Source of the DNA: Candidatus Binatia bacterium
GTDB lineage: Bacteria; Desulfobacterota; Binatia; UBA9968; CAXXLF01
NCBI GenBank assembly: GCA_963664015.2
Contig: CAXXLF010000002.1
Coordinates: 640,001-704,000 of the forward strand
Direction of reading: 5' to 3'
Length of the DNA stretch: 64,000 bases
Part shown: positions 9,423 through 56,945 of the stretch, one piece after another
How positions within the stretch are numbered: the first letter of the stretch is position 1
How the letters are laid out: each line of letters starts with the position of its first letter
The notes under the pieces: model-generated
Seen by the model: only the letters and a program-made list of their open reading frames with translations
The model's database searches: none
What the model was told of the DNA's origin: nothing
Translations under genes and position numbers: made by a program

Positions 9423-9480
9423 TTAACCATTATACCCTACCCTCGGTCTGGCTCAAATTCCATATTACCAATAACCCCAC

Positions 9481-12793: not shown

Positions 12794-12837
12794 AACTCCC
12801 GACCTTATCTTGCTTATCTTGCCACGGGAGTCCAGCC
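12794..12837. repeat. Stem-loop enclosing a 9-bp tandem duplication
   Basis: GGCTG..ACTCCCG pairs with CGGGAGT.CAGCC around TTATCTTGC x2. Confidence 0.4.
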
Positions 12838-12884
12838 GATCACCGAATTTTACTGTTTAACAGGAACCTGAACCGTCAACCATG

Positions 12885-14078: not shown

Positions 14079-14086
14079 TGACTCCT

Positions 14087-14812: not shown

Positions 14813-14852
14813 CTTTTTCCCCCTCTCTCTTATTGTAATTTTTGACTCATTT

Positions 14853-15437: not shown

Positions 15438-15451
15438 CGTTCGTGATCCGA

Positions 15452-39180: not shown

Positions 39181-39566
39181 CCAAACCGCCACTAGAATAC
39201 CCTGATTCCCCCTTTCAGGGGAAGAAAAAAACAATTGACCGTGCCTCTCAAGACATCAGGCAAATAGCAAGCAGATCGCCGTTTCAAGCATGCGTAAAAA
39301 AGCTGATACCAACACGCGAGAGTTGGCAGCCAGCTCTATACTGTTCCTATTGATTAACAGCCTATCTTTCCTGCCTTTCGATTTTTCTTAGTTGACGGCT
39401 GATCGTTAATTAGCGCTATGCGCTTTACTGCTGATCTCAGCTCTCAACACCCAGTCCTGATTAGCTGATAGCTATGTGTAAAAGGTCGACTGACGCCTAT
39501 TCCAGCGCCTGGACATTACCTCCTTGCTTATGTATAAGCGGGTGGATACTCGTCAGGGGGGGCGGC

Positions 39567-40286
39567 ATGGATCGGTTAACGAAGGAATTCAAGGAACAGC
39601 TCCTCAGCCTCATTGCTTCCTTTGGTAAGAAGCCGGACCTCCGGGTGCTTTGTGAGGAAAAGGGTCTGACCCGCGAGGGTGGCAAACGCCTGATTTTGGA
39701 GAGAAACGGGTTCAACCGGAGCTGGCCCCGCTGGCTCGGCGGGGTAGTTTCCAATTGCCCTCATAAAGAAGTCAATCTATACCTCATCTCTAACATGTAC
39801 GAAGAGGGGGTGATCGACCCAAGGGTCGGAACGGACCATAACGAACTCCACATGCGACTGGGCGAAGCACTCAGTCTCACACGCAAGCAGATCAATGATT
39901 ACGAGGCCAGCCCTACAACGGTAGCGGCAACGAGCTATTGGGAAAATGTGTACCGCACCAGGCCTTGGCTTGAAGAATTTACGGCTTTGGTGTGTCTCGA
40001 AATACGGACCAGCAAGAGGGCCATGGGGCCCCACTTTCAACCTAAACGAGTGAGATCAAGCGAAGCCTGGGCAAAATTAGGAATTGAAGTAGGGGCCTTA
40101 AAAACATCCACCAACCACGAGGCCGCCGACGAAGACCACGGCGGCGAGGCCCTTACCCTCCTTTCAAAATACGCAGATACGGAAGAGAAACAGAGAATCG
40201 TCCTTCGTATGACCCGGGAGAGTCTAACCGTCGAGCGCATGTTTAAAGACAACATAGGAAGAATGATGATGGCATGCGGAGAATGA
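39567..40286 (+). CDS. Heme-oxygenase-like diiron protein (TenA/PqqC/CADD superfamily)
   Basis: N.YEE...DHNELH..LGEAL, WLE...LE and HEAADEDHG metal-ligand pattern. Confidence 0.78.
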   Translation: MDRLTKEFKEQLLSLIASFGKKPDLRVLCEEKGLTREGGKRLILERNGFNRSWPRWLGGVVSNCPHKEVNLYLISNMYEEGVIDPRVGTDHNELHMRLGEALSLTRKQINDYEASPTTVAATSYWENVYRTRPWLEEFTALVCLEIRTSKRAMGPHFQPKRVRSSEAWAKLGIEVGALKTSTNHEAADEDHGGEALTLLSKYADTEEKQRIVLRMTRESLTVERMFKDNIGRMMMACGE

Positions 40287-40421: not shown

Positions 40422-42113
40422 ATGCCACCACAAAAACCAAACATCGCCATATTCTCAGGTGCGACGGCCACCATCCAAAACAGTCCCCCATTGGTTACGA
40501 GCAACAAGGCCCGTGAGCAGTACGGCCTTGCCTTTCGCACGAACGGCGATGGGAGTCCACTCCGCTTCGATACGCTGCGTTCCCAGCGGCTCGCCGCCCC
40601 GGTTACCGTGTATATCGAACAGTTCAGTGCCCACCCCCTGGAGCGGGACTCGGCTGAACTCTACGCCCCACCGGATGGCTACATCGACAGCGCAGGAGAA
40701 TTTCACGAGCAACGACAAAGCCCAGATGACACCCCGGTTTATAAGGTGACTTTGAACCCGGAAGACGGGCTCTACCCATTACCCTTCATGGGCCGCCAGG
40801 CCAATGGCCAACCCTGGGAAGGGGACGGCACAGGGCCGCAGGCACCGGAGGCCCAATGCCGCATCCCCTACTATCCCGACGCCTCGCGCATTGTTGAGGA
40901 AATCGACCGCTTGGGAATCGGGGAGTCCGGCTTTGGCGGCATCCTTTCATCCATGGCAAATTTTCACTTTTACAGGCCGGCACCATCAGGAGGCTACAGA
41001 AAGGGTCTGCCACAAGCACAGCGAACGGATATGGGAGCGGGAGATATCCAGCCGGAGATTCTAGGCAAGGATTTTTTTATTTACCGACCCGGTCATCTAC
41101 GATGCTCACCGACCATGGATACCCTCGCCCGAGTCACAAATGTGGTGCAGGACGCCATGGGGTCTGGGCAGTATGAGGGAGGCGTCTGGCTCGAGGGCAG
41201 CCCCAACGTGGAAGAGAGCTGCTACTGGCTCAATCTTTTGATCGATACCCGGGTGCCCATCGCGGGCAACGCGTCACAGCGACCTCACGGGCAGGTGGGA
41301 AACGACGGCGACCGCAATATCATCGATTCTGTGGATTACATCGTTTCCCGTGTCTGGACGGATCCGTCCGGGCAAGATGAAATCGGGGCGGTCGTCATCA
41401 TGGACCAGCAGATTTTTACTTCCCGCGAGGTCCAGAAGGCCGATGCACGTCCAGGGGGGTATACCGCCACCGGCGGACATGGCGGGATCGTCGGAACGGT
41501 TGGCCATGGACCCGCAGCTATCACCTTCAAGCCAGTCAGGCGACACACGCATACCTCGGAGGTTAACCTCAACCGTCTGCCGGACACGGTTCAAGGAGTC
41601 CGCCGAAAGGGTCACACAAATGAGCCCGTGACCCTACGAATCAAAGACGAGCGGGGCCACCTCCTCCCAAGCGCCATTCCCATGGTGACCATCGAGAAGA
41701 GCGCCCGTTATCGAGATGGGGGTTCCGAGAGCTACGAGGTTGGCATTCTCGCCCTGGCCGAGCGGAACCTAAGGGAGGGACTACTGGCAGGCTTCGTTGC
41801 CGAGGGGGCAGCCCCTTACGGTAGTACAGTCAATTCCATATCCGCTGCCCTTAATCGCGCTTCCTTATGCGGCATGCCCGTGGTCAAGGTGGGACGCGGC
41901 AACGCTGAGGGGTTCACGCCAAAGCGACCCAACGAGCTTGCCATTGCCGGCAGCAATCTGACAGCGACCAAGGCGAGGGTGCTACTCATGGCCTGTTTGA
42001 TGAAGCTGGGAAGCCTGCCCCCGGTGGCGGATACGGACCATCCGACCAAGAATGAGATCGACCGGATTCGGGCCAAATTGGCAGAGTATCAACGGATATT
42101 CGATACCCACTGA
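40422..42113 (+). CDS. Atypical asparaginase-fold protein
   Basis: IAIFSGATATI, GGVWLEGSPNVEE..YWL.L...P.AG.ASQRP....DG.RN and C-terminal SNLTATKARVLLM. Confidence 0.75.
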   Translation: MPPQKPNIAIFSGATATIQNSPPLVTSNKAREQYGLAFRTNGDGSPLRFDTLRSQRLAAPVTVYIEQFSAHPLERDSAELYAPPDGYIDSAGEFHEQRQSPDDTPVYKVTLNPEDGLYPLPFMGRQANGQPWEGDGTGPQAPEAQCRIPYYPDASRIVEEIDRLGIGESGFGGILSSMANFHFYRPAPSGGYRKGLPQAQRTDMGAGDIQPEILGKDFFIYRPGHLRCSPTMDTLARVTNVVQDAMGSGQYEGGVWLEGSPNVEESCYWLNLLIDTRVPIAGNASQRPHGQVGNDGDRNIIDSVDYIVSRVWTDPSGQDEIGAVVIMDQQIFTSREVQKADARPGGYTATGGHGGIVGTVGHGPAAITFKPVRRHTHTSEVNLNRLPDTVQGVRRKGHTNEPVTLRIKDERGHLLPSAIPMVTIEKSARYRDGGSESYEVGILALAERNLREGLLAGFVAEGAAPYGSTVNSISAALNRASLCGMPVVKVGRGNAEGFTPKRPNELAIAGSNLTATKARVLLMACLMKLGSLPPVADTDHPTKNEIDRIRAKLAEYQRIFDTH

Positions 42114-44689: not shown

Positions 44690-45685
44690 TTACCCTTGAA
44701 ACTCTTCCCGGTATAACCCGAAGGGTTCATATAGGGGTCGGTCCGACATAAAGAAGAGGCACGCCTCCTCATCCAGGGATCGGTTCTCGTGCCGATGCCA
44801 GGTCCAATTGGGGATCACCAAGTAGTCCCCCTTCTCCCACTCCAACACCTCATCGTTAACGACCGTTCTACCGCGGCCTCGAACTACGTGAAAAATCCCC
44901 GAGGAAGTGTGGCGGCGATTCTTGCCCCTCTCCCCCTGACGCAGGAGATGCAGGCCGCAGCTCATGGTTGGCAATGTAGGGGCACCCCCCTGTCCCGTAT
45001 AATCCATGATTAGGTCACCGCTCGATTCTCCCGATCGTTCTGCCATCTGCCGCAAGCGCTTCTCGCTTTCCTGCCACTTGTAGTACCAGCGGGCCCCGCC
45101 GTCATGCCTTTTCCCATCGTCTGATTTTTTCCACTCTCGTTGGACCGTCTGCTGCGGCTTTTCATGATCCTCGATAAACATCACATCCATCGCCTGCGAG
45201 AAGGGAACATCCAGGCCGTCAATCCATATCATGGGGCCGTCGGACTTGTTGATATGATCGTGCCAGGTCCAGTTGGGCGTGAGGACAAGATCGCCGGGCT
45301 CCATCAGGAAACTCTCTCCATTGACGGTGGTGAAGGTGTCCTTGCCTTCAACGACGAAACGGATGGCGGCCATGGTATGACGATGTGCTGTGGCGACTTC
45401 GCCGGGAAGAACCATTTGGACCGACATCTGCAGAGTATGGGTTGTAAATTTCTTTGGAGCCATACCGGGATTAACGAGCTGGATGGTTCTTCGGCCGGCT
45501 TCGGCCACACCGATGAGATCACCCGCCCGCATTAGAGTGTCGCGAATGACCGACCCCTTCCAAAGCATGGGCTTCAGCTTGGAGCGCGGCTCCATGTTTG
45601 CCGGGAGCCCCATCTTCCAGTGTCCTTGGATGGAGTACTTTTGAATTTCCTGATCAAAATTTTCGAGCTCTTCAGCCTTGGACAT
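44690..45685 (-). CDS. Gentisate 1,2-dioxygenase-like bicupin ring-cleavage dioxygenase
   Basis: RR...LVNPG, PGEVATAHRH...AIRF, DLVLTPNWTWHDH, W.DGLDVP and second cupin RHT...PNWTWHRH. Confidence 0.9.
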   Translation of the reverse strand: MSKAEELENFDQEIQKYSIQGHWKMGLPANMEPRSKLKPMLWKGSVIRDTLMRAGDLIGVAEAGRRTIQLVNPGMAPKKFTTHTLQMSVQMVLPGEVATAHRHTMAAIRFVVEGKDTFTTVNGESFLMEPGDLVLTPNWTWHDHINKSDGPMIWIDGLDVPFSQAMDVMFIEDHEKPQQTVQREWKKSDDGKRHDGGARWYYKWQESEKRLRQMAERSGESSGDLIMDYTGQGGAPTLPTMSCGLHLLRQGERGKNRRHTSSGIFHVVRGRGRTVVNDEVLEWEKGDYLVIPNWTWHRHENRSLDEEACLFFMSDRPLYEPFGLYREEFQG

Positions 45686-45819
45686 AGAAATGCTACCTCC
45701 ATTTATGGCACCGTAAAGAAACAACTAAATCAAGCAATATCACCGCGGCCCCCATTGGGTCAAGATACCCGCCCAATGGGGCTCCCCTCTCGATGGTCTC
45801 TGCTAGAAGGTGGATCCGT

Positions 45820-46524
45820 CTACCTTTTACTTTCGTTAACCTTCGCCTCGTAATAAGCCCAGGTCCGTTCGAACAGGCCTGCGGGACGGTCGTTCTGCAC
45901 CGCAAGGTTTTCCAGCTCATGCTTGAAGTCGGCGAGCTCATCTTCCGCATACGCCTTGGCGCCGCCCGCCAGGCCGGCCAGGAGCTGTATTTTGGCGGCC
46001 TCTTCCATCATGACGGCCTTCACCGTAGCCTCCTCCAGGCTGGAGCCAGCCACCGAACCGCCATGCCCCTTCATCAATACCGCCGTCTCCTTTCCCATCA
46101 GACTCGTCATCTCCTCCCCCCGCTTCCTCGAGTTAATCAAGCCCGCCTTCTTGTAGACCTTGCTACCGGCGAACGGGAAGCCGAACACGGTACCCGGGAG
46201 AAACGTAGCCTCAGCCGTAGCCAGTGAAGTGACGTACAGGGAGTGGGTATGGACGATCCCCTGGACTTCCGGACGTGACTGGTAAATGCAGATGTGGATC
46301 CAGGTCTCGCCGTGCCACTTGCCCTTGCCTTCGAGAACCTTCCCGTTGAAGTCCACCACCAGGAGGTCCTCGTTTGTCACCAGGCCAGGCGCGATGGCCC
46401 GTGATATCAGAAGCCGGTCAGTGCCTGGGGCCCGAACGCTCACGTGACCGAAAGGAACCGTCAGGCCCGTCTTGTCCAGGATCCGGTTTGCCATTACGAG
46501 TTTTTCAATTAGCTCATTGCTCAT
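45820..46524 (-). CDS. Class II aldolase/adducin-fold protein (pyridine-dicarboxylate decarboxylase-like)
   Basis: LVMANRIL....FGHVSVR, E..IH..IY..RP, VHTHS and LMKGHG motifs. Confidence 0.85.
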   Translation of the reverse strand: MSNELIEKLVMANRILDKTGLTVPFGHVSVRAPGTDRLLISRAIAPGLVTNEDLLVVDFNGKVLEGKGKWHGETWIHICIYQSRPEVQGIVHTHSLYVTSLATAEATFLPGTVFGFPFAGSKVYKKAGLINSRKRGEEMTSLMGKETAVLMKGHGGSVAGSSLEEATVKAVMMEEAAKIQLLAGLAGGAKAYAEDELADFKHELENLAVQNDRPAGLFERTWAYYEAKVNESKR

Positions 46525-46576
46525 GCCATCGTCCTTCAATTGGGGAGGAAACGTCGTGATGTTGTAACCTATTCGC

Positions 46577-47170
46577 CTAACGGCCAACCCTTTTCGGATA
46601 ATCAGGATGACGCAGCAAATTTTCGATAAAGGTCTCCTTCATCGCACGGCCATGGAGCCGCCGTGAATCCACTTCCACACGCGCTTTTCCCGGCTCGATC
46701 TTGAGCACGAAAAAGCTTAGCCCCCCGTCAGCCAGCGACTTTGGCACGACGCGTTTGAATTCGTCCTCGGTGCGGATGGTCCCGGTTACGGGGATTCCGG
46801 CTCCCTTTGCGATCGCTTCGAGATCGGCGTGGGTAGCCGTCGCCGTGGGTCCCATGTCAGCGTACGATTGATTGTCCATAACGAGTGCCAGGAGGTTGGG
46901 AGGGTTGACACCGGCTACAGTCACAAGGCTGCTCGTATCCAAGAGGAGACTGCCGTCCGAGTCGATAGCGACAACCTTTCGCTTGGGGTAGGCAAGGGAC
47001 AAGCCCAAAGCAAAGGAAAGACACATTCCCAGGTTGAGGCTGTGAAAATTGGCACCCTTGGGCCGCAGATAAGCCCACTCCCTTGCGTTGGGTCCTCGAG
47101 CTGTTACGGTGATCGCGTGTTCGTCCAGCCAGGAAGCAAGCAACGTGAGACAGTCGTAGCGGTTTACCAT
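46577..47170 (-). CDS. ThDP-dependent decarboxylase beta subunit (ComE/Ppd-like)
   Basis: LGMCLSFALGL and DSDGSLLL...MDNQSY (GDG-X-N motif variant). Confidence 0.85.
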   Translation of the reverse strand: MVNRYDCLTLLASWLDEHAITVTARGPNAREWAYLRPKGANFHSLNLGMCLSFALGLSLAYPKRKVVAIDSDGSLLLDTSSLVTVAGVNPPNLLALVMDNQSYADMGPTATATHADLEAIAKGAGIPVTGTIRTEDEFKRVVPKSLADGGLSFFVLKIEPGKARVEVDSRRLHGRAMKETFIENLLRHPDYPKRVGR

Positions 47171-47676
47171 AGGACATCTCCGGTTAAGAGTAGGACCAAC
47201 GGAGTGCTGTAACCCTGGCACGCAGCGTGGGCATCCAGCAGCTTGCGTTTGAGTTTCTCTTTTTCCTCCACGATCCGATAAGGGATCTTCAACGCACTCA
47301 GCACTGGCTCACCCACCTGATTGAACATATTGAGCTGATCGCCGGAGATACCGCTGCGATCGCTGACGTCCCCACGATAGGAGGCGAGAATGAAGACCGG
47401 GATACCATAAAGCACCCCCATCTGAGCGAGGGCCCAGCTTCCGACCAACAGTCCCGCAATACCCGTAATAAAAACGCAATTGCGCCCCCCCAGGGACGCT
47501 CCCGCGCACAGGCTTATGCCATGCCCTTCCCCTGTAACCGTTACGGCGGTAAAGAATGGGTCCTGGCGAATTTGCTCAGTCAACGGGTAAGTCGGATCCT
47601 CCGGCAACGTAACCACCAGATCGATATTCTTTTCCTTTAATGTTTCGATAATAACGCCAACCATGTCTTTATCCAT
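47164..47676 (-). CDS. ThDP-dependent decarboxylase alpha subunit (ComD/Ppd-like)
   Basis: VVTLPED, E..G..LCAGASLGG and P..ILASYRG motifs; overlaps the beta subunit start. Confidence 0.82.
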   Translation of the reverse strand: MDKDMVGVIIETLKEKNIDLVVTLPEDPTYPLTEQIRQDPFFTAVTVTGEGHGISLCAGASLGGRNCVFITGIAGLLVGSWALAQMGVLYGIPVFILASYRGDVSDRSGISGDQLNMFNQVGEPVLSALKIPYRIVEEKEKLKRKLLDAHAACQGYSTPLVLLLTGDVLW

Positions 47677-47723
47677 CTTTTTTTCTCTTTTCTCCGAGCT
47701 TGGCGTCCTTTGCACCTTTCCCC

Positions 47724-47758
47724 CGACTTTGCTCGGAACCCTGAGCCTGTCGAAGGGT
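47724..47758. repeat. REP-like palindrome of the CTGAGCCTGTCGAAGG type
   Basis: CGACTTTGCTCGG-AACC-CTGAGCCTGTCG hairpin followed by AAGGGT; a related CTGAGCTAGGTCGAG occurs near 22905. Confidence 0.6.
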
Positions 47759-47800
47759 GCGCGAATCATCTATTTCCGGGTACGTAATCAATATCTTCCC

Positions 47801-48361
47801 CTAGGGATTGGTTAGCTCTTTGGGCTTGAGGGCCCTGCGCTGAATCTCCGAACCGTTGAGGTTAACCACCGAGAACACGGGTGTAGGCCGCATGAGCGTG
47901 TCTACAGCCCGGCACTCCCTCTCGGCAAATTCCACGAGCGCTACTATTTTCTCCTTGGGTTCGGGACTATCAATGAAGGTCTCTAAGGTTATGTCGGAAA
48001 AGCCACAGGGGAATTCGGCCTTCTTAGACAACGAGCGATAGTCAAGACGACCTTTGATTACGGTGCGAGCAGAGCTGATAGCGATATCCAGTAGCGACGA
48101 AGCCGTCGCTATTTGACTGTGCAGTCAAAAAGCGGCGCCGAGCAGAAAATACTCCAGCGGCCCCGGCGCGGTGTCGGTTCCACCGTGACCGCGCTTCTGC
48201 TCGTCCGCATAGATCTCAAAGTGCCGGATCTTGCCCCGCTTACGATAGTTCTCCACAATCTCGACCTCGGCCGCTACCACCTGGTCCACCGGCTGCCTCG
48301 CCTTGGTCAACTCTTTAGATATTTCCACTCGGCCTTCACGGAGACGCTTTCGATCGATCAT
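47801..48361 (-). CDS. OsmC/Ohr family protein, probable selenoprotein
   Basis: ORFs 48125..48502 and 47801..48031 are in frame and separated only by TGA at 48125-48127: DE...GGTDTAPGPLEYFLLGAAF-U-LHSQ...AERECRAVDTL; the TGA is at the first catalytic Cys of OsmC. Confidence 0.85.
48092..48111 (-). promoter_or_regulatory. Candidate bacterial SECIS hairpin after the OsmC UGA
   Basis: mRNA UAGCGACG-GCUU-CGUCGCUA: perfect 8-bp stem, G first in the loop, starting 13 nt after the UGA. Confidence 0.7.
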
Positions 48362-48681
48362 CACTTCCCTCCGTCTGTTTCCAAGAAGAGCGCCGCTAGG
48401 CGACTGTTTTCCAAGTCCACATTGATGATCAGTCGTGAGGGAACTGAAGGGGCGACGGCTGCGGCAACGTACACGGGCCAACCCTCTCCCTCTCCAACCC
48501 AAACGTACCCCACTGGGGGCACTTCCCTCTCTTCCACCAGGATCACTTCAAAGCCAACGGCGCAGCATTCCTCACACTCATTTTCGAACACGACCAGGGC
48601 CGCGTCCTCAATAGGATCTGCTGCGAGGGCACCGACCAGCTCTTCTTTCGCCTGGCGGCCGATCTCAATTTCCATTTCCAT
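48361..48681 (-). CDS. Small acidic Cys-rich protein (HesB/IscA-like layout, CEECC motif)
   Basis: MEMEIEIGRQAKEEL...FENECEECCAVGFEV...GWPVYV; its TGA overlaps the OsmC ATG (TGATG). Confidence 0.6.
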   Translation of the reverse strand: MEMEIEIGRQAKEELVGALAADPIEDAALVVFENECEECCAVGFEVILVEEREVPPVGYVWVGEGEGWPVYVAAAVAPSVPSRLIINVDLENSRLAALFLETDGGK

Positions 48682-48685
48682 AGGG

Positions 48686-49414
48686 TTAATCCAATCCGTC
48701 GAACAATTTTGGATCCACTCCACACGCAATCCGCATGCAATGGTCTTCGAGGATGTGAAACGTCCTTTTGAATTGAACCGCCTTTCGCACCCCTTCCTGC
48801 TGCACTTCTGTGACCGCATACTTTTTAACGAGGTCCCGTGTGGACGAACCGTGGTCGATGTCCATTTCCGAGTGAAGGGTAAAATGGACCAGGCCCCAGT
48901 CCGGTACATCGTAGTGCTTGGCCAGGGCCTCGGCCATTTTCATCCCGTGTCCCCCGGTCCCTGTCCCCGAGTCTTCGTCGAAGCTCATGGAAGCCCCTTC
49001 CAACCAGGAATGGTCCCTGGCGTAGTTGACCCACGAGTCACAGACCAATCGATAGGCGTTGTGGAGATCCCGATAACTCTCCAGTTCGTCCCGCGGGATA
49101 CCGAGCCCCTCTGCCAGTTTGGCCCATAGCTCCGAGTGGGCCCCCACGGTCCCACCCATCACCCGACTGTCCTCTTCCTCGATGTACTTTGTAATGCGCT
49201 CCATGCGTACTTCTTTGATAGAACAGTTAGCCAAGATGTAGAGTTCCTTGCGCGGTACGTTGACCCGGTAATAGTAAAGCTGCTTAACCCACATCTTTAC
49301 CTGCTCCTTGGTAAGCCTACCGTACTGGATCAACAGGCGGGTGGGCCGTTCCACCCGGTAGGCCTGCCGTCCTTTCATGAGATTCTGGATCAATTCTTCG
49401 GGCGGCTGCAACAT
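48686..49414 (-). CDS. Heme-oxygenase-like diiron oxidase (PqqC/CADD-like)
   Basis: GRLTKEQVKMWVKQ.YYY...P.K...LANC, EEE...GAHSELW..LAEGLG, WLEG and HF.LH..MD.DH motifs. Confidence 0.85.
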   Translation of the reverse strand: MLQPPEELIQNLMKGRQAYRVERPTRLLIQYGRLTKEQVKMWVKQLYYYRVNVPRKELYILANCSIKEVRMERITKYIEEEDSRVMGGTVGAHSELWAKLAEGLGIPRDELESYRDLHNAYRLVCDSWVNYARDHSWLEGASMSFDEDSGTGTGGHGMKMAEALAKHYDVPDWGLVHFTLHSEMDIDHGSSTRDLVKKYAVTEVQQEGVRKAVQFKRTFHILEDHCMRIACGVDPKLFDGLD

Positions 49415-49436
49415 AACGTCATCTCCTATTTCCGTC

Positions 49437-50867
49437 TTAATCAAAAAGGCCTTTCCATTTCTGCATTACCTTTTCCCGTTCCTCGTCGCTCGACTGAACG
49501 ACCCGGGGGAAATCCTGAATCCAGTCGAAGGGCCGGCAGGCGTCGATCACGGCCCGGGAACCGAAGGAGATCTTTTCAGGCTTGGGGTAAATGGGATCCA
49601 AAGGACCGGTATAGGTGTTGCGGAGAATATCGATATCCTTTTCCGGATTGGAACGGGTGCTGATGGCCCAGATGACCTGATCCAAATCGCTGGGATCGAT
49701 GTCGTCATCGACCACGACCACATACCTTCCCATGGAAGTCCCTCCTGCCCGGCATTGGCATACCATGAAACCGGCTTGCCGTGCGTGACCGGGATAGCGC
49801 TGTTTGATCGAGACAACTGTGAAGAAGTTGATGCCCGACACCTCGTGATACCAGACCCCTTTGACATCCGGGATGCCGTCTTTCTTCAGCGAATCTTTCA
49901 CGTTCGCAGATTTCATCGCCGACATAAAATAGGAATAGTCGTGAGGTGGGCGCGCCGGCATGGCGCCAAGAATGATGGGATCGTTCCGGTGGTAGAGAGC
50001 CTTGACCTGAATCACCGGTTCCTTCTCCCTGCCCGACGCGTAGTATCCCGTATACTCACCGTAGGGTCCTTCGTCTCTCCGTTCATCGGGCGGCGAAAAC
50101 CCTTCGATAGAAAACTCACTACCGGCGGGAATGGGCAGACCCGTAATCTCACCGGGGATCACCGGGACGGGCTTCCCGAAAATAGCCCCGACGAACTGGT
50201 ACTCGGATATACTGTAGGGGACACTCATCGCTGCAAGCACGTGATAGAGCGGATGGTGTCCGAAGGATACGGCAATGGGCGCCGCTTCGCCCCGAGCATG
50301 ATACTTTTTGACGTTTAGCGCACCATGGTGAGCGGAAGAGATATGGAGTGCCAGGGTCTTCTCATCGTGGAGCATCAAACGGTAGGCCCCCAGGTTGATC
50401 ACCCCCGTATCCGGATCCCGAGTGATAACGACACAACCCGTACCCAAATATTTCCCGCCGTCATACTCGTGCCACTTGGGAGCCGGGAACTTGAGCAGAT
50501 TGACGTCGTTACCGAAAAACCGGTTTTCCATCACGGCACCGTCGGAAACCTCCTCCGGTGCGAATTCACCCGAACGCCTTTCCCAATCGATCACCTTTCC
50601 CTCCAGGCGCGACACAAGCTCTTGGTCCGTAGTGATATCGCGGTACCCTAGGGTGAGCCCCAGCCTTTGGGCATCCAGAATAGCGCCGGTAACGATCCGG
50701 TATCCCTTGTCATGGCCCTTGATGTTGTCAAAGATGAATGCGGGCCCCCTGCGCTTGCAGTTGACTTCGGCCAGTATCCCGAGCTCCAGGTGGGGATCGG
50801 CGCCGTCAACGACCTTGAGTTTTCCTATTCCCTCGACTTCTTTAAGCCAGCTTCTCAGATCCTCCAT
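49437..50867 (-). CDS. UbiD family (prFMN-dependent) decarboxylase
   Basis: DGGKYLGT, NLGAYR, EFSIEG, EGPYGEYTGYY, VVDDDID and IDAC motifs. Confidence 0.93.
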   Translation of the reverse strand: MEDLRSWLKEVEGIGKLKVVDGADPHLELGILAEVNCKRRGPAFIFDNIKGHDKGYRIVTGAILDAQRLGLTLGYRDITTDQELVSRLEGKVIDWERRSGEFAPEEVSDGAVMENRFFGNDVNLLKFPAPKWHEYDGGKYLGTGCVVITRDPDTGVINLGAYRLMLHDEKTLALHISSAHHGALNVKKYHARGEAAPIAVSFGHHPLYHVLAAMSVPYSISEYQFVGAIFGKPVPVIPGEITGLPIPAGSEFSIEGFSPPDERRDEGPYGEYTGYYASGREKEPVIQVKALYHRNDPIILGAMPARPPHDYSYFMSAMKSANVKDSLKKDGIPDVKGVWYHEVSGINFFTVVSIKQRYPGHARQAGFMVCQCRAGGTSMGRYVVVVDDDIDPSDLDQVIWAISTRSNPEKDIDILRNTYTGPLDPIYPKPEKISFGSRAVIDACRPFDWIQDFPRVVQSSDEEREKVMQKWKGLFD

Positions 50868-50966
50868 CGGTTTTCCCCTTTATATCAAAATTTCTATTTT
50901 CTTAGCCCAATAGCTCGAACGCAAAACACCACAGTCAACTAAAGATAAGGTCAGGACAAACACGGC

Positions 50967-51869
50967 TTACTTGTCGTACTGCCGGGGATCAAAAACATCC
51001 CGTAGGCCATCGCCAAGCAAGTTGAAGCCCAAAATGGTCATGGAGATGGCGAGACCGGGGATGAGGGCCACGTGGGGTCCAAGTTCCATGTAACCCCGTG
51101 CCTCGTTGAGCATGAGTCCCCAGCTGGGAGCGGGAGGGGCAAATCCCAACCCGAGAAAACTCAGGGAGGACTCGGTGATGATGGCATGGGCGCAGTCAAG
51201 CGTTATCAGGACCAGTAAGGAACCGATGCAATTGGGAAGGATCTGAAAGAAAAGGATCCTAAACTCGGATTCACCCGTCATGCGAGCGGCTTCGACGTAT
51301 TCTTTCTCTTTTTGTGAGAGAACTACGCCTCGAACCACCCGGGCATAGCCGGGGATCGAGGTAATGCCAATGGCCAGCCACAGTGTCAAGAAGTTTGCGC
51401 CCATGGCAGCAACTAGGGCAATGGCCAGGAGACGTCCCGGAAAGGCGAGAACCGCATCGATAAACCGCATGATGAGCATGTCCACTCGTCCACCCATATA
51501 ACCTGAGAATGCTCCCAATGGAACACCGATGAGAATGGCCAGGAGAACGGCTCCCATGGCCACCTGCATCGCGATGCGAGTGCCCAGGATAACCCGGGTA
51601 TAGATATCCCGTCCGAACACATCGGTACCGAACAGGTGCTGAGCCGAAGGAGGCGATAGGCGGTCGATTATGTTCATTTGATAAGGGTCTTGAGTAATAA
51701 TGAGATCGGCGCCGAGAGTCACAAACACGACCAATGTGATCAAAAGAAGCCCTACGGTAGCAAGGCGGTTGCGTAGGATAACCCGTAGACCGCTGCTGAC
51801 CTTTTCTAATAACTCTCGAAATCTTACCGAAGAGGTGGGCGCAATGATATTCCCTGTTGTGTTAGCCAT
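50967..51869 (-). CDS. Peptide/nickel ABC transporter permease (DppC-like)
   Basis: HLFGTD.FGRD, EYVEAA and ESSLSFLGLG..PP.PSWG motifs. Confidence 0.92.
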   Translation of the reverse strand: MANTTGNIIAPTSSVRFRELLEKVSSGLRVILRNRLATVGLLLITLVVFVTLGADLIITQDPYQMNIIDRLSPPSAQHLFGTDVFGRDIYTRVILGTRIAMQVAMGAVLLAILIGVPLGAFSGYMGGRVDMLIMRFIDAVLAFPGRLLAIALVAAMGANFLTLWLAIGITSIPGYARVVRGVVLSQKEKEYVEAARMTGESEFRILFFQILPNCIGSLLVLITLDCAHAIITESSLSFLGLGFAPPAPSWGLMLNEARGYMELGPHVALIPGLAISMTILGFNLLGDGLRDVFDPRQYDK

Positions 51870-51870
51870 T

Positions 51871-52824
51871 TTACTCCATTTGGATTCTCGGATCGAGCCA
51901 ATGGTAAATGACATCAACAATCAAGTTCACAAAGACATAGGTGAACGCCAGGAAGAGGACGGATCCTTGGAGAAGAGGATAGTCTCTGGCGTAGATAGCC
52001 TCCAGAACCAAAAGGGCCAAGCCGGGCCAGGAAAAAACCGTCTCTACTATAGTCGACCCACCAAAAAGTCGCCCCACTTGCAATCCGATGGCCGTTGTTG
52101 CCGCCACCAGAGAGTTTTTCAGAACATGTCGGGAAACAATTGCTCGAGGCGGTAAACCTTTCGCCTTGGCCGTTCGCACGTAATCCAACCTAAGCTGTTC
52201 CAACATCTCAGCCCTGACGAATCGCGTAATGCTGGAGGCCATAGCGGTTCCGAGCACGATGGCGGGAAGGATCAAGTGCCAGAGGAACTGGATAAAATTC
52301 ACGGAGGGATCCACGTATCCCATGGTGGGAAAGACTCTCCAGTACAGGCCAAAAAAAAGGATAAGCAAGAGGGCAAGCCAGAAATTAGGGACCGAAATAC
52401 CGAACAGGGCAAACCCCATAGCCGAATAGTCCAGGGGAGTATTCTGCTTCACCGCGGCGATAACGCCGGCAGGGATGGAGATCAGGATTCCCACGATAAA
52501 GGCACTGAATGCCAGGTAAATTGTTGCGGGATACCGGGCCTTGACCATGTCCCAGACAGGCTCACCAGTCTGCATGGACTGCCCCAAATTCCCCTGCAAG
52601 ACGTTGCCCATCCAACGCACATATTGGATATAGATGGGGGCGTCTAGTCCCAGCTGTTTTCGGAGCGCGTCGTAGAGCTCCTGACTGGCCGCAGCATCGT
52701 CCTCCCCGAGCATGACCTCAACCGGGTCGCCGGGGATTAGATGGATGATTAGAAAAACAAAGATGGAAACGAAGAAAAGGACCGGGACGAGCTGTAACAG
52801 TCGCTTTAGTATGTACTTGCCCAA
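51871..52824 (-). CDS. Peptide/nickel ABC transporter permease (DppB-like)
   Basis: PGDP, GLD.P...QY, P.FWL, DYVRTAKAKGL and ETVFSWPG motifs. Confidence 0.92.
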   Translation of the reverse strand: MGKYILKRLLQLVPVLFFVSIFVFLIIHLIPGDPVEVMLGEDDAAASQELYDALRKQLGLDAPIYIQYVRWMGNVLQGNLGQSMQTGEPVWDMVKARYPATIYLAFSAFIVGILISIPAGVIAAVKQNTPLDYSAMGFALFGISVPNFWLALLLILFFGLYWRVFPTMGYVDPSVNFIQFLWHLILPAIVLGTAMASSITRFVRAEMLEQLRLDYVRTAKAKGLPPRAIVSRHVLKNSLVAATTAIGLQVGRLFGGSTIVETVFSWPGLALLVLEAIYARDYPLLQGSVLFLAFTYVFVNLIVDVIYHWLDPRIQME

Positions 52825-52861
52825 ACGATCCTCTTCTCCGTAGGATTGGTTGTTCTCTAAT

Positions 52862-54448
52862 CTACTTGGCCAGCCACGTCCGTGAGAGCCCGCCCGTGGT
52901 CAGGTTAAAACGGGCCCCGTCGTCAGTGGTGAAACCCCGGACCTTCTTGTTGAACACGAAGTAGCGCGGCACAATGACCAGTGGGATTTCCGGCAGGTCG
53001 CTGTGGACCAGGCGGATGGCCTTATCGTAGAGCTTGAAACGCTCTTTCTTGTCGCTGGTTTGACTCGCCTTATCCGTCAGCTGGTCAAACTCTGGATTGC
53101 AGTATCCCGAGTAATTCAGGATGCGTTTTTTTCTCTTGCCTTCGAGGCATGAAAATCGAAACGGATACGCGTCGGCAGGGTCTTTGACGACCTCCGCCCC
53201 ACTGAAGCCCAACATGAAGTTTCCCGAGCGACGCATCCGTGAAATTTTGCCGCCGGTGAGGAATTCAAGCTTAACATTGAATCCGGCGCTGGTAAGTTGG
53301 CGTTCAATCACCTGCATCATGGGCTCCTCACCCTTACGGGCTATTAACTCGATCTCGAAGTTCGGGTCCACTCCGGATTCTTTGACCAACGCCTTCGATT
53401 TGGCGACGTCTCTCTTTATTTCCGGGAGACCAATGTGCCAGGGGCTGGTGTCGGGAATCGCCCACACGGTGGCCGGCACACCGTAGCCCCAATAGGCCGC
53501 GGTGATCAACTCTCTCATGTCCAAGGCGTAACGAACCGCATGGCGCAGCTTGGGATTATTGAACGGCGGTTTCGTCACCTCGAAAATGAGCCGGCGAAAG
53601 CCCGAATACTCGGCCTCGGCGATGCCCAGGTTGGGATAGTCTCCATCCGTTATTTTCTTAATAAAGGCATAAGGCGCCCTCTCGATGAGGTCCAGATCGC
53701 CCGCACGCACCGAGGTGAAACGGGCCTGCGTATCCCGTGCCGGTTTTAATATCAGCTCGTCGAGATAGGGGAGCCCTTTTTGCCAGTAGTTCTTGTTACG
53801 AACCAGGGTCACATGCCTTGCCCGTTTATAGTTTTTGAAGACAAAGGGACCTGTTCCCGGTGGAAACCCTATTATTCTTTTCTTAGCCTTGACTAGTTTC
53901 TTCAATCGTTGATTACTTCCAGTGGCGACCGATCCTTCAGGGACCACGACGAAGGGGCGAATCGAAGCCATGATGTTAAGAAAAATCGGGTCGACACCCT
54001 TCAACTTGAAATCGACGATGAGGTTGCCCCTCGCCGTCACGGATTCCACATTGCGCAACAGGGACAACCCTGTGGCCGCGTTTTTCGGATTCATCGCATA
54101 TTCGGCGCTCCATTTCACGTCCTGAGCGGTCATATTCTTGCCGTTATGAAACTTGACGCCGCTGCGGAGCTTAAAGGTATAGGTTTTGCCGTCGGAAGAG
54201 ATCTGCCACGCCTCGGCCAAGGCCGGAACAGGTTTTCCTTTAAGATCGAAATCCAGCAGGCCCTCAAACATTAACTGCCGCACGTAAGAGTCCGTCGACT
54301 GGGTTCTCCAGAAGGGGTTGAGTGAAGAGAGGTCCTTACGGATACCAAAGATGAGACGCCCGCCATACTGAGGCGTGTCGGCAGCCCATAGGGACCCAGT
54401 GATCATAAAGAGTCCCAAAATTAACGCTAATGTTCGTAACTGTTTCAT
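52862..54448 (-). CDS. Family 5 ABC substrate-binding protein (DppA-like)
   Basis: Signal peptide; P.LAE.W....DG.TYTFKLR.GVKFH, GTGPF and N.NYW..G.PYLD motifs. Confidence 0.92.
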   Translation of the reverse strand: MKQLRTLALILGLFMITGSLWAADTPQYGGRLIFGIRKDLSSLNPFWRTQSTDSYVRQLMFEGLLDFDLKGKPVPALAEAWQISSDGKTYTFKLRSGVKFHNGKNMTAQDVKWSAEYAMNPKNAATGLSLLRNVESVTARGNLIVDFKLKGVDPIFLNIMASIRPFVVVPEGSVATGSNQRLKKLVKAKKRIIGFPPGTGPFVFKNYKRARHVTLVRNKNYWQKGLPYLDELILKPARDTQARFTSVRAGDLDLIERAPYAFIKKITDGDYPNLGIAEAEYSGFRRLIFEVTKPPFNNPKLRHAVRYALDMRELITAAYWGYGVPATVWAIPDTSPWHIGLPEIKRDVAKSKALVKESGVDPNFEIELIARKGEEPMMQVIERQLTSAGFNVKLEFLTGGKISRMRRSGNFMLGFSGAEVVKDPADAYPFRFSCLEGKRKKRILNYSGYCNPEFDQLTDKASQTSDKKERFKLYDKAIRLVHSDLPEIPLVIVPRYFVFNKKVRGFTTDDGARFNLTTGGLSRTWLAK

Positions 54449-54662
54449 GCAGTCCTCCTCTAAATTTATACAGAATCCAAAACCTTGACAGGGCTTTCTT
54501 AATTACCAATTCCACTCTACTCTGTCAACCGCGATTCCAGTACCATTCCAAAGCCCGAACTCATCAGAATCAAAAGATTATCTAGTGCGTATTCACTTGA
54601 ATTTTCGAGCGCTGCCACCGTATAGTGCAGGGCAGAGCAGGATCCGAATCTAGAGATCCGAA

Positions 54663-56945
54663 TTGAAAGTTGCCGTGGAATCAATGAAGGAAAAAAGAGC
54701 CAGGCCTCAAGCCGACCTGATTCGAGTCGATGCAGTCGACAAGGTCTCCGGGACCGCGTGTTACGCGGCGGATGTTCCCCTTCCGGGCCTGCTGGTAGGG
54801 GCTATGCTGCGCAGCACCATTCCCCATGGGCTCATCACTTCTATGGATGTCTCCAAGGCGCGGGAGATTCCCGGTGTCCACGGGGTTCTGACGGCTCAGG
54901 ACGTTCCCGATCTACGTGTCGGAAAGGGCTTACAGGACATTCCTCTTTTGGCACAGGAGCGGGTGCGGTTTGTCGGTGAAAGGATCGCTGCCATCGCCGC
55001 CGAATCTAGGGAGATCGCCGAAGAGGCGATCCACGCCATTAAAGTCGAGTACGCAGACCTCCCCACGGTCTGTGACGTCGAGAAGGCTCTCAGGCCCGAT
55101 GCCCCCATCATTCACCCTGAGCGCGCCACCTATAAACCCGCCGAAGGCCGTGAATGGCCCGAGTTCCCATCCGAGCCGAACGCAAATTCCCGGGTACTTT
55201 ATAAAAAGGGAAACTTCGAAGACGGCTTTTCGACCGCGGCCAGGGTTTTTGAGGACGTCTTCACTCTGCCCATGCAGCACCACGCCTTCATCGAACCCCA
55301 TTGCTGCACCGTCGCCGTCGATAACGGCGGCGGCGATGCGGAAAAGGTCCGAGTCTGGACCTCCATCAAGCAGCCTTTCTCCATGCGGGACTGGCTTGCA
55401 TCCGCCACGGGAGTTCCATCCGAGCGCATCGTCATCCTGCCCACCCAGATCGGCGGCGACTTCGGGGGCAAGGCCTTTCTATGGGACGAAGCGCTTGCCT
55501 ATTTTCTCGCCCGTGCCAGCGGCCGGCCCATCCGCATGGTAACGAGCCAGAACGAGGAGTTTGTGGCCGGCATCCACCGTCACGCCGCCGTGATTCGCAT
55601 CAAGAGCGGCCTGGACTCCCAGAACAACCTGACAGCACGTGAGGTTCGCATCCTATTTAACAACGGCGCCTACGCGGGCTACCGCCCCCACCCGACCATC
55701 GGTGGCTCTGCCCAAGCGGCTGGCTGCTACCGCATCCCTCACGTTCGCATTACGAGTACTCACGTCTACACCAATCAGGGCCCCTGTGGTCATATGCGCG
55801 GACCCGGTGAGCCTCAGGTCGGCTTCGCCGTGGAGTCCCACACCGACATGATCGCCCGGCGACTCGGGATGGATCCCGTGAAGTTCCGTCGCCAAACCGT
55901 CATGCGGGACGGCGACGAAGGCCCCCTAGGAAAGGTCTGGCATTCGGTTACGGCAGGCGAAATGGTGACAAGAGCGGCAACCGCGCTCCATTGGGATAAG
56001 CCGAAGAAACAGAACACCGGTCGAGGATTCGCCGTTAACGAGCGGGCTACGGGGAGGGGCAAGGCCGCCGTAGCTCTCGAGATCGACGCCGAAGGGCAAA
56101 TTTTGATCCGCACAGGTCTCGCGGAAATCGGCACCGGGGCCCACACCATGCTCAGGCAAGTGCTCGCCACTGCCTTCAAGATCGATCCCGCGGAGATTTC
56201 CGTGGTTCAGGGCGATACCGACAAGGGACCCTACGACCAGGGCGCCAACGCCAGCAAAGTGACCAACACCACGGGGGGCGCCGTTCTACTGGCCGCAAAG
56301 GATACACTGCCGCGCATCTTTGCCGCTGCCGCGGAGTTGAAGGGCTGGCCGGTCGGCGCCATCAGCGTGGAGCGGGGCCGAATCGTCTGCAAGGGCCGGC
56401 CAGGGTCCGTAACCTTTAAAGTAGCGGCAATTCGATTGGCGAAAACGAGCGGCGGCCGCTTCCGCCAGGACGCAGAACTATCATCGGAGCGCGGGGATTC
56501 GTTCGGCTACGCCTGCCAAGGAGTAGAAGTGACGGTAGACCGTGAGACCGGAAGGATTCGAATCAACCGCATCGTGGCCATCCAGGACGTGGGCTACGCC
56601 ATCAACCGCCAGGCCCTTACGAGCCAGATCGCCGGGGCCATCGGCATGGGGCTTGGCATGGCGCTGAGGGAAGAAATGCGCTACGACAACGGCTACCTTC
56701 AGGCGGTCAACTTCGGCGCGTACAAGATTTCCTGCGTCGCTGACATCCCGCCCACGACCTTTGAATTGATCGAGAACGGTGATGGCCCGGGTCCCTTTGG
56801 CGCCAAGGGTGTGGGGGAGATCGCTGCAGTGCCTATCATGGCGGCCATCGCCAATGCCGTCGAAGACGCCATAGGAGTGCGGATAACCGACTTACCGATC
56901 ACGGCAGAGAAGGTTCTGGGCGCACTCAACGGGCGGAAAAATTGA
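54663..56945 (+). CDS. Xanthine dehydrogenase family molybdopterin-binding subunit
   Basis: KVSG.A.Y..D, EPH, IGGDFGGK, MRGPGEPQ, EIGTG and GPFGAKGVGE motifs. Confidence 0.92.
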   Translation: MKVAVESMKEKRARPQADLIRVDAVDKVSGTACYAADVPLPGLLVGAMLRSTIPHGLITSMDVSKAREIPGVHGVLTAQDVPDLRVGKGLQDIPLLAQERVRFVGERIAAIAAESREIAEEAIHAIKVEYADLPTVCDVEKALRPDAPIIHPERATYKPAEGREWPEFPSEPNANSRVLYKKGNFEDGFSTAARVFEDVFTLPMQHHAFIEPHCCTVAVDNGGGDAEKVRVWTSIKQPFSMRDWLASATGVPSERIVILPTQIGGDFGGKAFLWDEALAYFLARASGRPIRMVTSQNEEFVAGIHRHAAVIRIKSGLDSQNNLTAREVRILFNNGAYAGYRPHPTIGGSAQAAGCYRIPHVRITSTHVYTNQGPCGHMRGPGEPQVGFAVESHTDMIARRLGMDPVKFRRQTVMRDGDEGPLGKVWHSVTAGEMVTRAATALHWDKPKKQNTGRGFAVNERATGRGKAAVALEIDAEGQILIRTGLAEIGTGAHTMLRQVLATAFKIDPAEISVVQGDTDKGPYDQGANASKVTNTTGGAVLLAAKDTLPRIFAAAAELKGWPVGAISVERGRIVCKGRPGSVTFKVAAIRLAKTSGGRFRQDAELSSERGDSFGYACQGVEVTVDRETGRIRINRIVAIQDVGYAINRQALTSQIAGAIGMGLGMALREEMRYDNGYLQAVNFGAYKISCVADIPPTTFELIENGDGPGPFGAKGVGEIAAVPIMAAIANAVEDAIGVRITDLPITAEKVLGALNGRKN

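Follow-up and report, generated by a model that had tools for sequence, protein, structure and literature searches.

A UbiD-rich Binatia genome carries a gene cluster with a PqqC-like putative diiron oxidase: a candidate catabolic module for carboxylated aromatic acids

The described pathways for furan-2,5-dicarboxylate and furoate (HmfF with HmfABC) and for the N-heteroarene acids nicotinate, picolinate and quinaldate follow a common logic, in which the acid is decarboxylated, the electron-poor ring is hydroxylated with water, and the ring is then cleaved. This logic would be shared by a cluster of eleven tightly spaced minus-strand genes at positions 44690–54448 of a 64,000-nucleotide stretch (the window, G000:C2:640001-704000) in the genome of a Candidatus Binatia bacterium (G000; 3.5 Mb, two contigs, 97% complete); the cluster has neither a coenzyme A (CoA) ligase or transferase nor a three-subunit hydroxylase, and instead carries a putative diiron oxidase and a family-5 periplasmic solute-binding protein. 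Among solved structures, its UbiD-family decarboxylase is closest to PDB entry 7PDA, which is PhdA, the phenazine-1-carboxylic acid decarboxylase of Mycobacterium fortuitum (PMC10850782). The oxidase has the fold of PqqC and CADD in a structural model; PqqC is its nearest relative by sequence and by Foldseek, and CADD is next.

Genes were assigned to families by Pfam and NCBIfam profile scores, with the equivalog cut-offs as thresholds for named functions. An earlier reading of the same DNA, made from the letters alone (the sequence-only reading), had described eleven co-directional minus-strand genes of named families with a divergently transcribed molybdenum (Mo) hydroxylase. Open reading frames (ORFs) and profile matches confirm this observation throughout, and the interpretation put on it, an import-and-degrade system, is partly supported. 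On balance, we lean towards the view that the genes together form a single catabolic module, whose substrate would be an aromatic acid that is carboxylated and possibly N-heterocyclic, in a Binatia bacterium that would be a specialist in aromatic-acid decarboxylation. The most interesting result, in our judgment, goes beyond what had first been noted: it is the order-wide expansion of UbiD together with a new PqqC-derived oxidase family that is tied to the binding protein.

Conserved core, proposed module and main rival

An orthologue of the oxidase is present in 8 of 401 sampled genomes of the class (G000 counted) and on 28 metagenome contigs. When 36 loci were compared with the window proteins by tblastn, 35 with an oxidase orthologue of at least 58% identity were kept; the dropped locus, L054, has two pairs of binding protein and oxidase at 25–48% identity, is too frameshifted to read, and serves as a lead only. 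A DppA-like gene lies within 5 kb of the oxidase orthologue at 28 of the 35 loci and directly upstream of it (<300 bp, same strand) at 21, and five of the seven loci without such a gene have less than 2.6 kb of upstream sequence. UbiD is found within 1.5 kb of the oxidase at 19 loci and within 5 kb at 21. The conserved core is formed by the family-5 binding protein, the PqqC-like protein and UbiD, to which close relatives add the gentisate-type dioxygenase and the Mo-hydroxylase. A small Cys-Cys protein, an OsmC-related selenocysteine (Sec) protein, a thiamine diphosphate (ThDP) enzyme and an aldolase-fold gene are variable accessories, present in few close relatives only. The eleven genes are not one fixed system, and only the three core genes recur across families.

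The metagenome contig L028 repeats nearly the whole gene order, with proteins 75–88% identical to those of the window. It starts with a divergent Mo-hydroxylase, DppABC, and an extra DppA and UbiD, and continues with UbiD, oxidase, Cys-Cys protein, Sec-OsmC, ThDP alpha and beta subunits, bicupin and DUF3108; an M24/creatinase-type hydrolase takes the place of the window's aldolase-fold gene. L001, L029 and L030 share UbiD, oxidase, Cys-Cys protein, Sec-OsmC and the aldolase-fold gene, and L029 ends before the point at which the bicupin would follow. In L001, a major facilitator superfamily (MFS) transporter replaces DppABC and an AhpC-2OG-oxygenase fusion lies upstream, while L002 has DppABC, UbiD, oxidase and bicupin only. 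All five loci carry a UbiD orthologue (83–88% identity) adjoining the oxidase. The sequence-only reading had named a lack of conservation elsewhere as a ground for its own refutation; this ground falls away, since the neighbourhood recurs in other genomes and metagenomes.

A second family of loci (f2), in which the oxidase is 62–69% identical, has the order Mo-hydroxylase, DppA-like, oxidase, UbiD, Mo-hydroxylase, bicupin. Each of these loci has between two and four UbiD paralogues, besides several binding proteins of the NMT1/SsuA type and genes of the amidohydrolase_2 and cyclase families, and tblastn found no orthologue of DppBC, the Cys-Cys protein, OsmC, the ComDE-like pair or the aldolase-fold protein in them. 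Extra genes are seen at L020 (948-3930, 14959-16512, 19376-19900) and L038 (200-2223, 9667-10698); in f2 loci of this kind, a single operon can combine UbiD and Mo-hydroxylase genes with as many as five for NMT1/SsuA-like binding proteins, and kynurenine-formamidase-type cyclase genes and amidohydrolase_2 are present as well. Chance alone does not explain the gene arrangement, which recurs almost unchanged in L028 and in part at other loci. Binding protein, oxidase and UbiD remain together despite the rearrangement that separates the families, and the ThDP enzyme and the uptake system (ATP-binding cassette, ABC, or MFS) are each kept via non-orthologous genes, which argues for function rather than inertia.

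The steps of the proposed module are drawn from the enzyme families, and their order is not set. In the periplasm, the family-5 binding protein would capture a carboxylated, possibly N-heterocyclic, aromatic acid, which DppBC would then import with the help of ATPases encoded at other sites of the genome. The PhdA-like UbiD would take off a ring carboxylate, using prenylated flavin mononucleotide (prFMN) from the genome's single UbiX, and the ring would be oxidised or hydroxylated by the heme-oxygenase-like diiron oxidase, with O2, and by the Mo-hydroxylase, with water. The gentisate-type bicupin would then open the resulting ortho-hydroxy-carboxy ring to a 2-oxo acid, to be decarboxylated by the ThDP enzyme, which is ComDE-like here and benzoylformate-decarboxylase-like in relatives. 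The aldolase-fold protein would work together with the diiron oxidase, probably as a metal-dependent decarboxylase or aldolase, and Sec-OsmC with its Cys-Cys neighbour may be a lineage-specific add-on for protection against peroxide or redox stress. The core of the module would thus comprise uptake, UbiD decarboxylation, oxidation by the diiron oxidase and the Mo-hydroxylase, and bicupin cleavage, with add-ons that vary.

For uptake, the cluster provides parts of a putative Dpp/Opp-type importer, namely a binding protein and two permeases. The binding protein (52862..54448, minus strand) has an N-terminal signal-like sequence and is of the family-5, DppA/NikA/GsiB-like type (SBP_bac_5 261.7 bits). 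It scores below the cut-off of every NCBIfam equivalog, the best being GsiB with 171 and NikA with 157 bits, and reaches 122 bits with the DppA equivalog (cut-off 1005); its top match in the PDB has only 155 bits. The permeases, both on the minus strand, are of the DppB type (51871..52824; BPD_transp_1 152.3 bits, BPD_transp_1_N 58.9 bits) and the DppC type (50967..51920; BPD_transp_1 111 bits, OppC_N 28.7 bits). The transporter must borrow its ATPases from one of two DppDF-like pairs encoded elsewhere in the genome.

A number of observations weigh against a single catabolic module. None of the cluster enzymes reaches the curated NCBIfam equivalog cut-off of any characterised function, so that no substrate is assigned and no described pathway is matched, in agreement with the sequence-only reading, which had known of no pathway with this combination. 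DppB and DppC orthologues are restricted to L002 and L028 among the compared loci, and the cluster has no ABC ATPase gene, the four oligo_HPY ATPase genes of the genome (the two DppDF-like pairs) lying elsewhere; family-5 binding proteins are not known to act as aromatic-acid receptors. No gene for an FeS or FAD subunit adjoins the Mo-hydroxylase, the next ORF coding for an unrelated SH3 protein, and the genome has 7 genes for [2Fe-2S] small subunits (Fer2_2) against 21 for Mo-hydroxylase large subunits. The Cys-Cys and Sec-OsmC genes occur at 4 of the 35 loci, the aldolase orthologue at three and the ComDE-like pair at one, and in f2 loci the dioxygenase is replaced by paralogues of 22–37% identity. 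Furthermore, the compared loci have common ancestry and include near-duplicates (L029/L030, L043/L044 and L038/L039/L041), and their counts therefore overstate the independent support. With about 51 UbiD loci in the genome, some chance adjacency is expected. Across G000, only 2 of the 51 UbiD loci have an oxidase-family gene closer than 5 kb (mean 1.1 and maximum 5 under random placement), and the link between UbiD and oxidase is thus specific to this orthologous group and not genome-wide. Finally, the contigs from public sequence runs described below cannot show a single transcript or an expression level.

The main rival explanation is a mosaic, in which DppABC, UbiD with the oxidase, the Cys-Cys protein with Sec-OsmC, the ThDP enzyme, the aldolase-fold gene and the dioxygenase would be independent small units that lie side by side in a gene-crowded genome and share no substrate. 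The variation of the accessory genes among relatives and the transporter without ATPases fit such an assembly, as do the gene numbers: tblastn of G000 with the window proteins finds about 51 UbiD loci (49 covering at least 300 aa), 21 Mo-hydroxylase large subunits, about 16 bicupin, 12 aldolase-fold and 7 DppA-like loci, and the genome has four Sec-OsmC copies, which makes that gene not special to the cluster site. A mosaic does not account well for the tight same-strand packing with overlaps, nor for L028, where nearly the full order is retained at about 80% identity. It is also at odds with a ThDP enzyme held in the same position by non-orthologous forms, and with the linkage of binding protein, oxidase and UbiD in two families whose oxidases are 62–69% identical. 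We regard the mosaic as unlikely, and as the strongest of the alternatives.

UbiD decarboxylase and the UbiD-rich genome

The catabolic reading places UbiD at the decarboxylation step. The protein (49437..50867, minus strand) contains the three Pfam domains UbiD_N, UbiD and UbiD_C (36.2, 216.3 and 111.2 bits), and its score of 294.7 bits with TIGR00148, above the cut-off of 244.85, places it in the UbiD family. Among all solved structures, PhdA matches over the full length with 321 bits, and the next structure has 185 bits. The motifs EGPYGEYTGY (EGPxGExTGY) and G-A-YR (G-x-YR) align with those of PhdA, and they hold what we take to be the catalytic Glu-Arg-Glu and the metal- and prFMN-binding positions. 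The prFMN synthase UbiX is encoded by a single-copy gene in the genome (C2:1280431-1280976; 238.9 bits). The likeness to PhdA thus comprises the full-length match, the two kept motifs and the presence of UbiX, whereas the cluster protein is only about 40% identical to PhdA by eye and is one of about 51 paralogues. The context of binding protein, diiron oxidase and bicupin presumably also differs from that of the PhdA locus of M. fortuitum.

The similarity to PhdA raises the alternative that the cluster detoxifies a redox-active heteroaromatic carboxylate such as phenazine-1-carboxylate, with UbiD starting the breakdown and a Sec-OsmC peroxidase clearing the peroxides of redox cycling. PhdA being by far the closest solved UbiD, the peroxiredoxin-like selenoprotein inside the operon and the AhpC-2OG-oxygenase fusion upstream at L001 would all suit such a function. 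An identity of about 40% is, however, in the range where UbiD substrates differ, and the UbiD paralogues of G000 may all fall in the same broad clade; Sec-OsmC is missing from most related loci, and no other known phenazine-degradation gene was identified. We consider detoxification improbable, clearly more so than a mosaic.

Among cultured bacteria, the cluster's UbiD is closest to an unannotated gene of Paraburkholderia (44.8% identity) and to one that Aromatoleum aromaticum EbN1 carries on its plasmid 2 (43%). This second gene adjoins an ABC transporter and lies inside an island of UbiX, UbiD and CoA-transferase genes, which we take to be the anaerobic phthalate cluster. As a comparable system, the locus of P. 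caribensis that contains the top UbiD match from a cultured bacterium was considered and set aside, as it is unannotated and has only a distant Mo-hydroxylase in common with the window.

The many UbiD copies of G000 are part of a wider pattern. In a Pfam search of 61 genomes of the class, all eight genomes of the window's order had between 26 and at least 41 UbiD matches, whereas a UbiD match, and a single one, was found in 1 of 53 genomes of other orders. Among these 61 genomes, the UbiD expansion is seen only in this order of Binatia. We found no publication that treats Binatia together with UbiD, and related literature searches gave nothing relevant. The cluster is one of dozens of UbiD loci in its genome, which lowers its uniqueness and raises the interest of the lineage.

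Within G000, a second UbiD lies within 5 kb of 20 of the 51 UbiD loci, compared with a mean of 7.4 and a maximum of 14 under random placement. The corresponding numbers are 9 of 51 for a bicupin (mean 2.5, maximum 7) and 8 of 51 for a Mo-hydroxylase large subunit (mean 3.7, maximum 10). Examples of UbiD copies are C1:135454-136866 and C2:704348-705754, and another copy lies inside the window at 20518-21951. Where the window ends (window 63273-63959 onward; G000:C2:703309-710680), another such series of genes begins, for a bicupin, a UbiD, a Mo-hydroxylase, a further UbiD and a gentisate-like dioxygenase.

The PqqC-like putative diiron oxidase

The oxidase gene (48686..49414, minus strand) codes for 242 aa from Met11; the longest ORF spans 48686-49444, and orthologue alignments place the start probably at Met11, i.e., at position 49414. 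The protein exceeds the cut-off of Haem_oxygenas_2 (PF14518; 40.0 bits, cut-off 28.9) and matches TENA_THI-4 with 52.7 bits. It shares its fold with PqqC and CADD, but it remains under both NCBIfam cut-offs, with 97.6 bits for the PqqC model TIGR02111 (cut-off 240) and 52.6 bits for CADD (cut-off 200). The active-site positions of PqqC are substituted: in a phmmer alignment, His154, Tyr175 and Arg179 of Klebsiella PqqC, known as active-site mutants from PDB titles, face Gly, His and a gap, respectively, and His84, which we assume to be catalytic in PqqC, faces Glu. Instead, nine residues (Glu80, Glu81, His93, Asp146, Glu147, His177, His181, Asp185 and His188), candidates for iron binding, are invariant in 48 homologues of 57–90% identity. 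They include Glu80 or Glu81, His93, Glu147 and His181-x3-Asp185-x2-His188, which would correspond to the six-ligand pattern of heme-oxygenase-like diiron proteins with its three His and three carboxylate ligands (Glu, His, Glu, HxxxDxxH), and presumably to the ligand positions of CADD. The PqqC-like protein is not PqqC, and its conserved residues suggest a putative diiron oxidase, in keeping with the sequence-only reading.

Foldseek searches with an AlphaFold model of modest quality (predicted local distance difference test, pLDDT, 66.4) returned PqqC first, followed by CADD, FlcD, BesC, HrmI and UndA. The oxidase family comprises 73 clusters at 57% identity or higher, all of them environmental and none from a cultured organism, and the only matches to the oxidase on plasmids of cultured bacteria are true PqqC genes, with an identity of about 30%.

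Another alternative is that the cluster makes or salvages a quinone or a cofactor resembling pyrroloquinoline quinone (PQQ), with the PqqC-like protein completing or dismantling an imported polycarboxylated tricyclic molecule. It would suit the position of PqqC as the closest solved protein in both sequence and fold, the three carboxylates of PQQ, equal in number to the potential decarboxylases of the cluster, and the amino-acid-like ligands that Dpp-type receptors bind. The low PqqC score, the substituted PqqC residues, the absence of pqqB, pqqD and pqqE beside those three further oxidase paralogues for which the adjoining genes were read, and a ring-cleavage dioxygenase and Mo-hydroxylase that point to degradation make it highly improbable. 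These three paralogues, at C2:240-258 kb, adjoin aldolase-fold, amidohydrolase and dehydrogenase genes and not pqq genes, and a PQQ operon was rejected on this basis.

Searched with the oxidase, G000 has nine loci of the family, four of which have an aldolase-fold gene within 3 kb. The oxidase and the aldolase-fold protein probably act in sequence, and their recurrent pairing may represent a two-step module. A pair of heme-oxygenase-like diiron oxidase (HDO) and class II aldolase-fold (AldII) genes is found at C2:243710-245410, and a run of HDO, AldII and HDO genes at C2:250747-253138 (locus L058), with amidohydrolase_2 and Zn-dehydrogenase genes adjoining. The window also codes for a second heme-oxygenase-like, CADD-like protein (39474-40286, plus strand), followed by a 563-aa asparaginase-domain protein (40422-42113, plus strand); L028 has a similar oxidase gene (18083-18895) in the matching place.

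Remaining cluster proteins, operon layout and wider meaning

The ring-cleavage step of the catabolic reading is assigned to the bicupin (44690..45724, minus strand), a protein of the gentisate/salicylate/5-aminosalicylate type that matches Cupin_2 twice. Like gentisate, salicylate and 5-aminosalicylate 1,2-dioxygenases, it has two cupin domains, with an HxH...H motif, read from the sequence, in the N-terminal one, whereas its scores are far under the equivalog cut-offs (gentisate model TIGR02272 263.4 bits, cut-off 442.1; MabB 244.2 bits, cut-off 650). Solved gentisate and salicylate dioxygenases in the PDB match with 182–202 bits, and the best plasmid-borne homologues, about 38–41% identical, are annotated only as 'cupin domain-containing protein'. 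Orthologues of 74–83% identity are present at L001, L002, L028 and L030. Enzymes of this family cleave the ring of ortho-hydroxy aromatic carboxylates to yield a 2-oxo acid, with which a downstream ThDP-dependent 2-oxo-acid decarboxylase would fit.

The ThDP enzyme is split into a Pyr-domain (ComD-like, alpha; 47164..47769) and a PP-domain subunit (ComE-like, beta; 46577..47221; TPP_enzyme_C 45.8 bits), both on the minus strand. With subunits of about 200 aa each, it resembles the sulfopyruvate decarboxylase ComDE and phosphonopyruvate decarboxylase, which give the best NCBIfam matches, but the cluster subunits score only about half the cut-offs (alpha, TIGR03845 81.7 bits, cut-off 147.95; beta, TIGR03846 98.9 bits, cut-off 221.5), and the alpha subunit is also below the Pfam cut-off of TPP_enzyme_N (22.0 versus 26.8 bits). 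The pair has orthologues in L028 only. In L001 and L029, a 580-aa ThDP enzyme (PRK08327 292 bits, benzoylformate decarboxylase 156 bits) occupies the ComDE position, and this non-orthologous replacement suggests generic 2-oxo-acid decarboxylation rather than sulfonate chemistry. A sulfonated substrate was rejected as a specific claim, given the ComDE-like scores far under cut-off and the other ThDP type in L001 and L029. Of the substrates proposed by the sequence-only reading, a carboxylated (hetero)aromatic acid still gives the best account, whereas the sulfonated one is left without specific support. Its three decarboxylase chemistries are candidate ones, assigned by family membership.

The class II aldolase/adducin-fold protein (45820..46587, minus strand; Aldolase_II 105.8 bits) could be an aldolase, an epimerase or a decarboxylase. 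It exceeds the cut-off of the fold family PF00596 only; all NCBIfam models score below theirs, including the best one, an epimerase subfamily (97.6 bits, cut-off 251), and the 3,4-dihydroxyphthalate decarboxylase PhtC (77.4 bits, cut-off 200). Orthologues (82–88%) are present in L001, L029 and L030. The divergent Mo-hydroxylase large subunit (54663..56945, plus strand; 760 aa) belongs to the xanthine oxidase family, with the domains Ald_Xan_dh_C, MoCoBD_1 and MoCoBD_2. Its best NCBIfam scores, 442.8 bits for XdhA and 438.4 bits for the alpha subunit of 4-hydroxybenzoyl-CoA reductase, are both below cut-off, and the latter enzyme also provides the closest PDB match (1RM6, 253 bits). Orthologues of 78–80% identity occupy an equally divergent position in L028 and L029. 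Mo-hydroxylase large subunits of the 36–41% clade mostly stand alone in the genome.

The OsmC-related selenoprotein (47801..48361, minus strand; 186 aa) contains an in-frame TGA (48127-48125) at the position of the first conserved Cys, and scores above the cut-off of NF041052 (OsmC_like_Se; 116.1 bits, cut-off 95). A perfect 7-bp hairpin with a GCUU loop, resembling a Sec insertion sequence, follows 15 nt after the TGA (48110-48093), and the TGA, the downstream frame and the hairpin (GCGACG-GCTT-CGTCGC) are kept in all four intact orthologues (window, L001, L028 and L029; the L030 gene is broken by an assembly gap and was left out). The genome has tRNA-Sec and SelB (408.7 bits, above cut-off). 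The TGA is a credible Sec codon, as the sequence-only reading had it. With its score, TGA, hairpin and the Sec machinery, the protein belongs to a known family, and it is ordinary for the lineage: NF041052 is matched above cut-off in 20 of 151 genomes of the class. G000 has four matches, each with one in-frame TGA, three of which exceed the cut-off; the cluster copy is the lowest of the three (107.6 bits in the genome comparison), and the fourth has 81 bits. The other putative Sec-OsmC paralogues are at C2:1336549-1336971, C1:76098-76526 and C2:1596931-1597344. The cluster copy differs from them in that it alone has a Cys-Cys gene upstream, the only copy of that gene in the genome by tblastn.

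The small acidic Cys-Cys protein (48361..48681, minus strand; 106 aa) has no Pfam match, and its relatives form only 12 representative clusters at E ≤ 0.001 in a profile search among 1.84 billion proteins. The 'CEECC' motif noted by the sequence-only reading is not conserved; within the motif E-C-C-x-V-G-F, Glu38-Cys39-Cys40 is invariant in four orthologues, and across ten family members Cys39 is invariant and Cys40 nearly so. At a Pfam E-value of up to 10, Fe-S_biosyn was matched in only one of four members (E 0.051), and a language-model look-up (Atlas) gave 'HesB-like', scoring 0.87, as no more than a lead. A structure model with a pLDDT of 45.8 is unusable.

Taking the longest ORFs, the spacing within the cluster ranges from small overlaps to 99 bp, and it extends to about 135 bp with orthologue-supported starts. 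DppA and DppB are 37 bp apart, DppC and UbiD 99 bp, and the aldolase-fold gene is separated from the bicupin by 95 bp. The oxidase and Cys-Cys genes have 4 bp between them; the stop codon of the Cys-Cys gene and the start codon of OsmC overlap by one base. Upstream of the first operon gene, TTGACA is followed about 17 nt on by a TA-rich hexamer (54500..54528, minus strand), which could be a promoter-like element for the operon. The TTGACA does not vary when the intergenic sequences from the window, L028 and L029 are aligned, and the element was not listed by a consensus promoter scan. The scan was itself uninformative, with 7 promoter-like sites (6.2 expected) and 19 terminator-like sites (11.2 expected), and none of either kind lies at a gene boundary where it would split the operon. 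Rfam and tRNA scans of the window gave no matches.

Public runs from 12 studies contain the stretch of the cluster. Three seawater metatranscriptomes, each from a different study, and a single DNA run from seawater were aligned; for the other runs, shares below 0.2 were left out as evidence on habitat. Contigs from the RNA libraries match DppA, DppB/C, UbiD, the oxidase and the bicupin at 99% identity or higher, and one of 645 nt covers the junction of DppA and DppB. No RNA-run contig covers the Cys-Cys, OsmC, ThDP or aldolase genes, and the Mo-hydroxylase is represented in the RNA runs by a 20-nt fragment and by trace depth in X15 only; in both respects the contigs are uninformative on expression. 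The RNA contigs are a weak hint at expression of the cluster, with carry-over of DNA being possible.

The GC content is even along the whole window, and its first part (1-17725) codes for housekeeping proteins (ALAD, a HemC-HemD fusion, GluTR, sirohaem synthase, ATP sulfurylase and sulfite reductase). Given that this part encodes haem and sirohaem biosynthesis as well as sulfate assimilation, the catabolic cluster sits in the core chromosome. Between 29373 and 38110, the window has genes for an MFS transporter, a tripartite tricarboxylate transporter (TctC/TctA/TctB) with a second TctC, an isochorismatase-family hydrolase, a fumarylacetoacetate-hydrolase-family protein and a Zn-dehydrogenase. 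The fumarylacetoacetate-hydrolase-family gene and the tricarboxylate transporter genes are 8–15 kb from the cluster, and the genes of this region could serve downstream or parallel steps of aromatic-acid catabolism.

A broader and more tentative reading, to which we give distinctly less credence than to the catabolic module as such, is that the cluster belongs to an undescribed lifestyle on carboxyl-rich aromatic matter, with the oxidase catalysing a new O2-dependent reaction of a polycarboxylated (hetero)aromatic acid taken up from outside. On this reading, the order would have multiplied its prFMN-UbiD decarboxylases to 26–51 copies per genome and combined them with orphan Mo-hydroxylase large subunits, gentisate-like bicupins and the new PqqC-derived oxidase, which accompanies a family-5 binding protein. 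Benzene- and pyridine-polycarboxylates, acids of the phenazine and quinoline type, and PQQ itself would then be conceivable substrates.

If the catabolic reading is true, the cluster would offer a testable set of enzymes for the breakdown of carboxylated aromatics in uncultured marine and soil Binatia. The oxidase would represent a new, tightly conserved branch of heme-oxygenase-like diiron proteins, linked to a binding protein and UbiD, and Sec-OsmC with its rare Cys-Cys neighbour poses a small open question for selenoprotein biology. The cluster would also point to an order-wide expansion of UbiD that we have not found in print. UbiD enzymes are sought as reversible (de)carboxylation catalysts, and a genome with about fifty of them is therefore a rich source.

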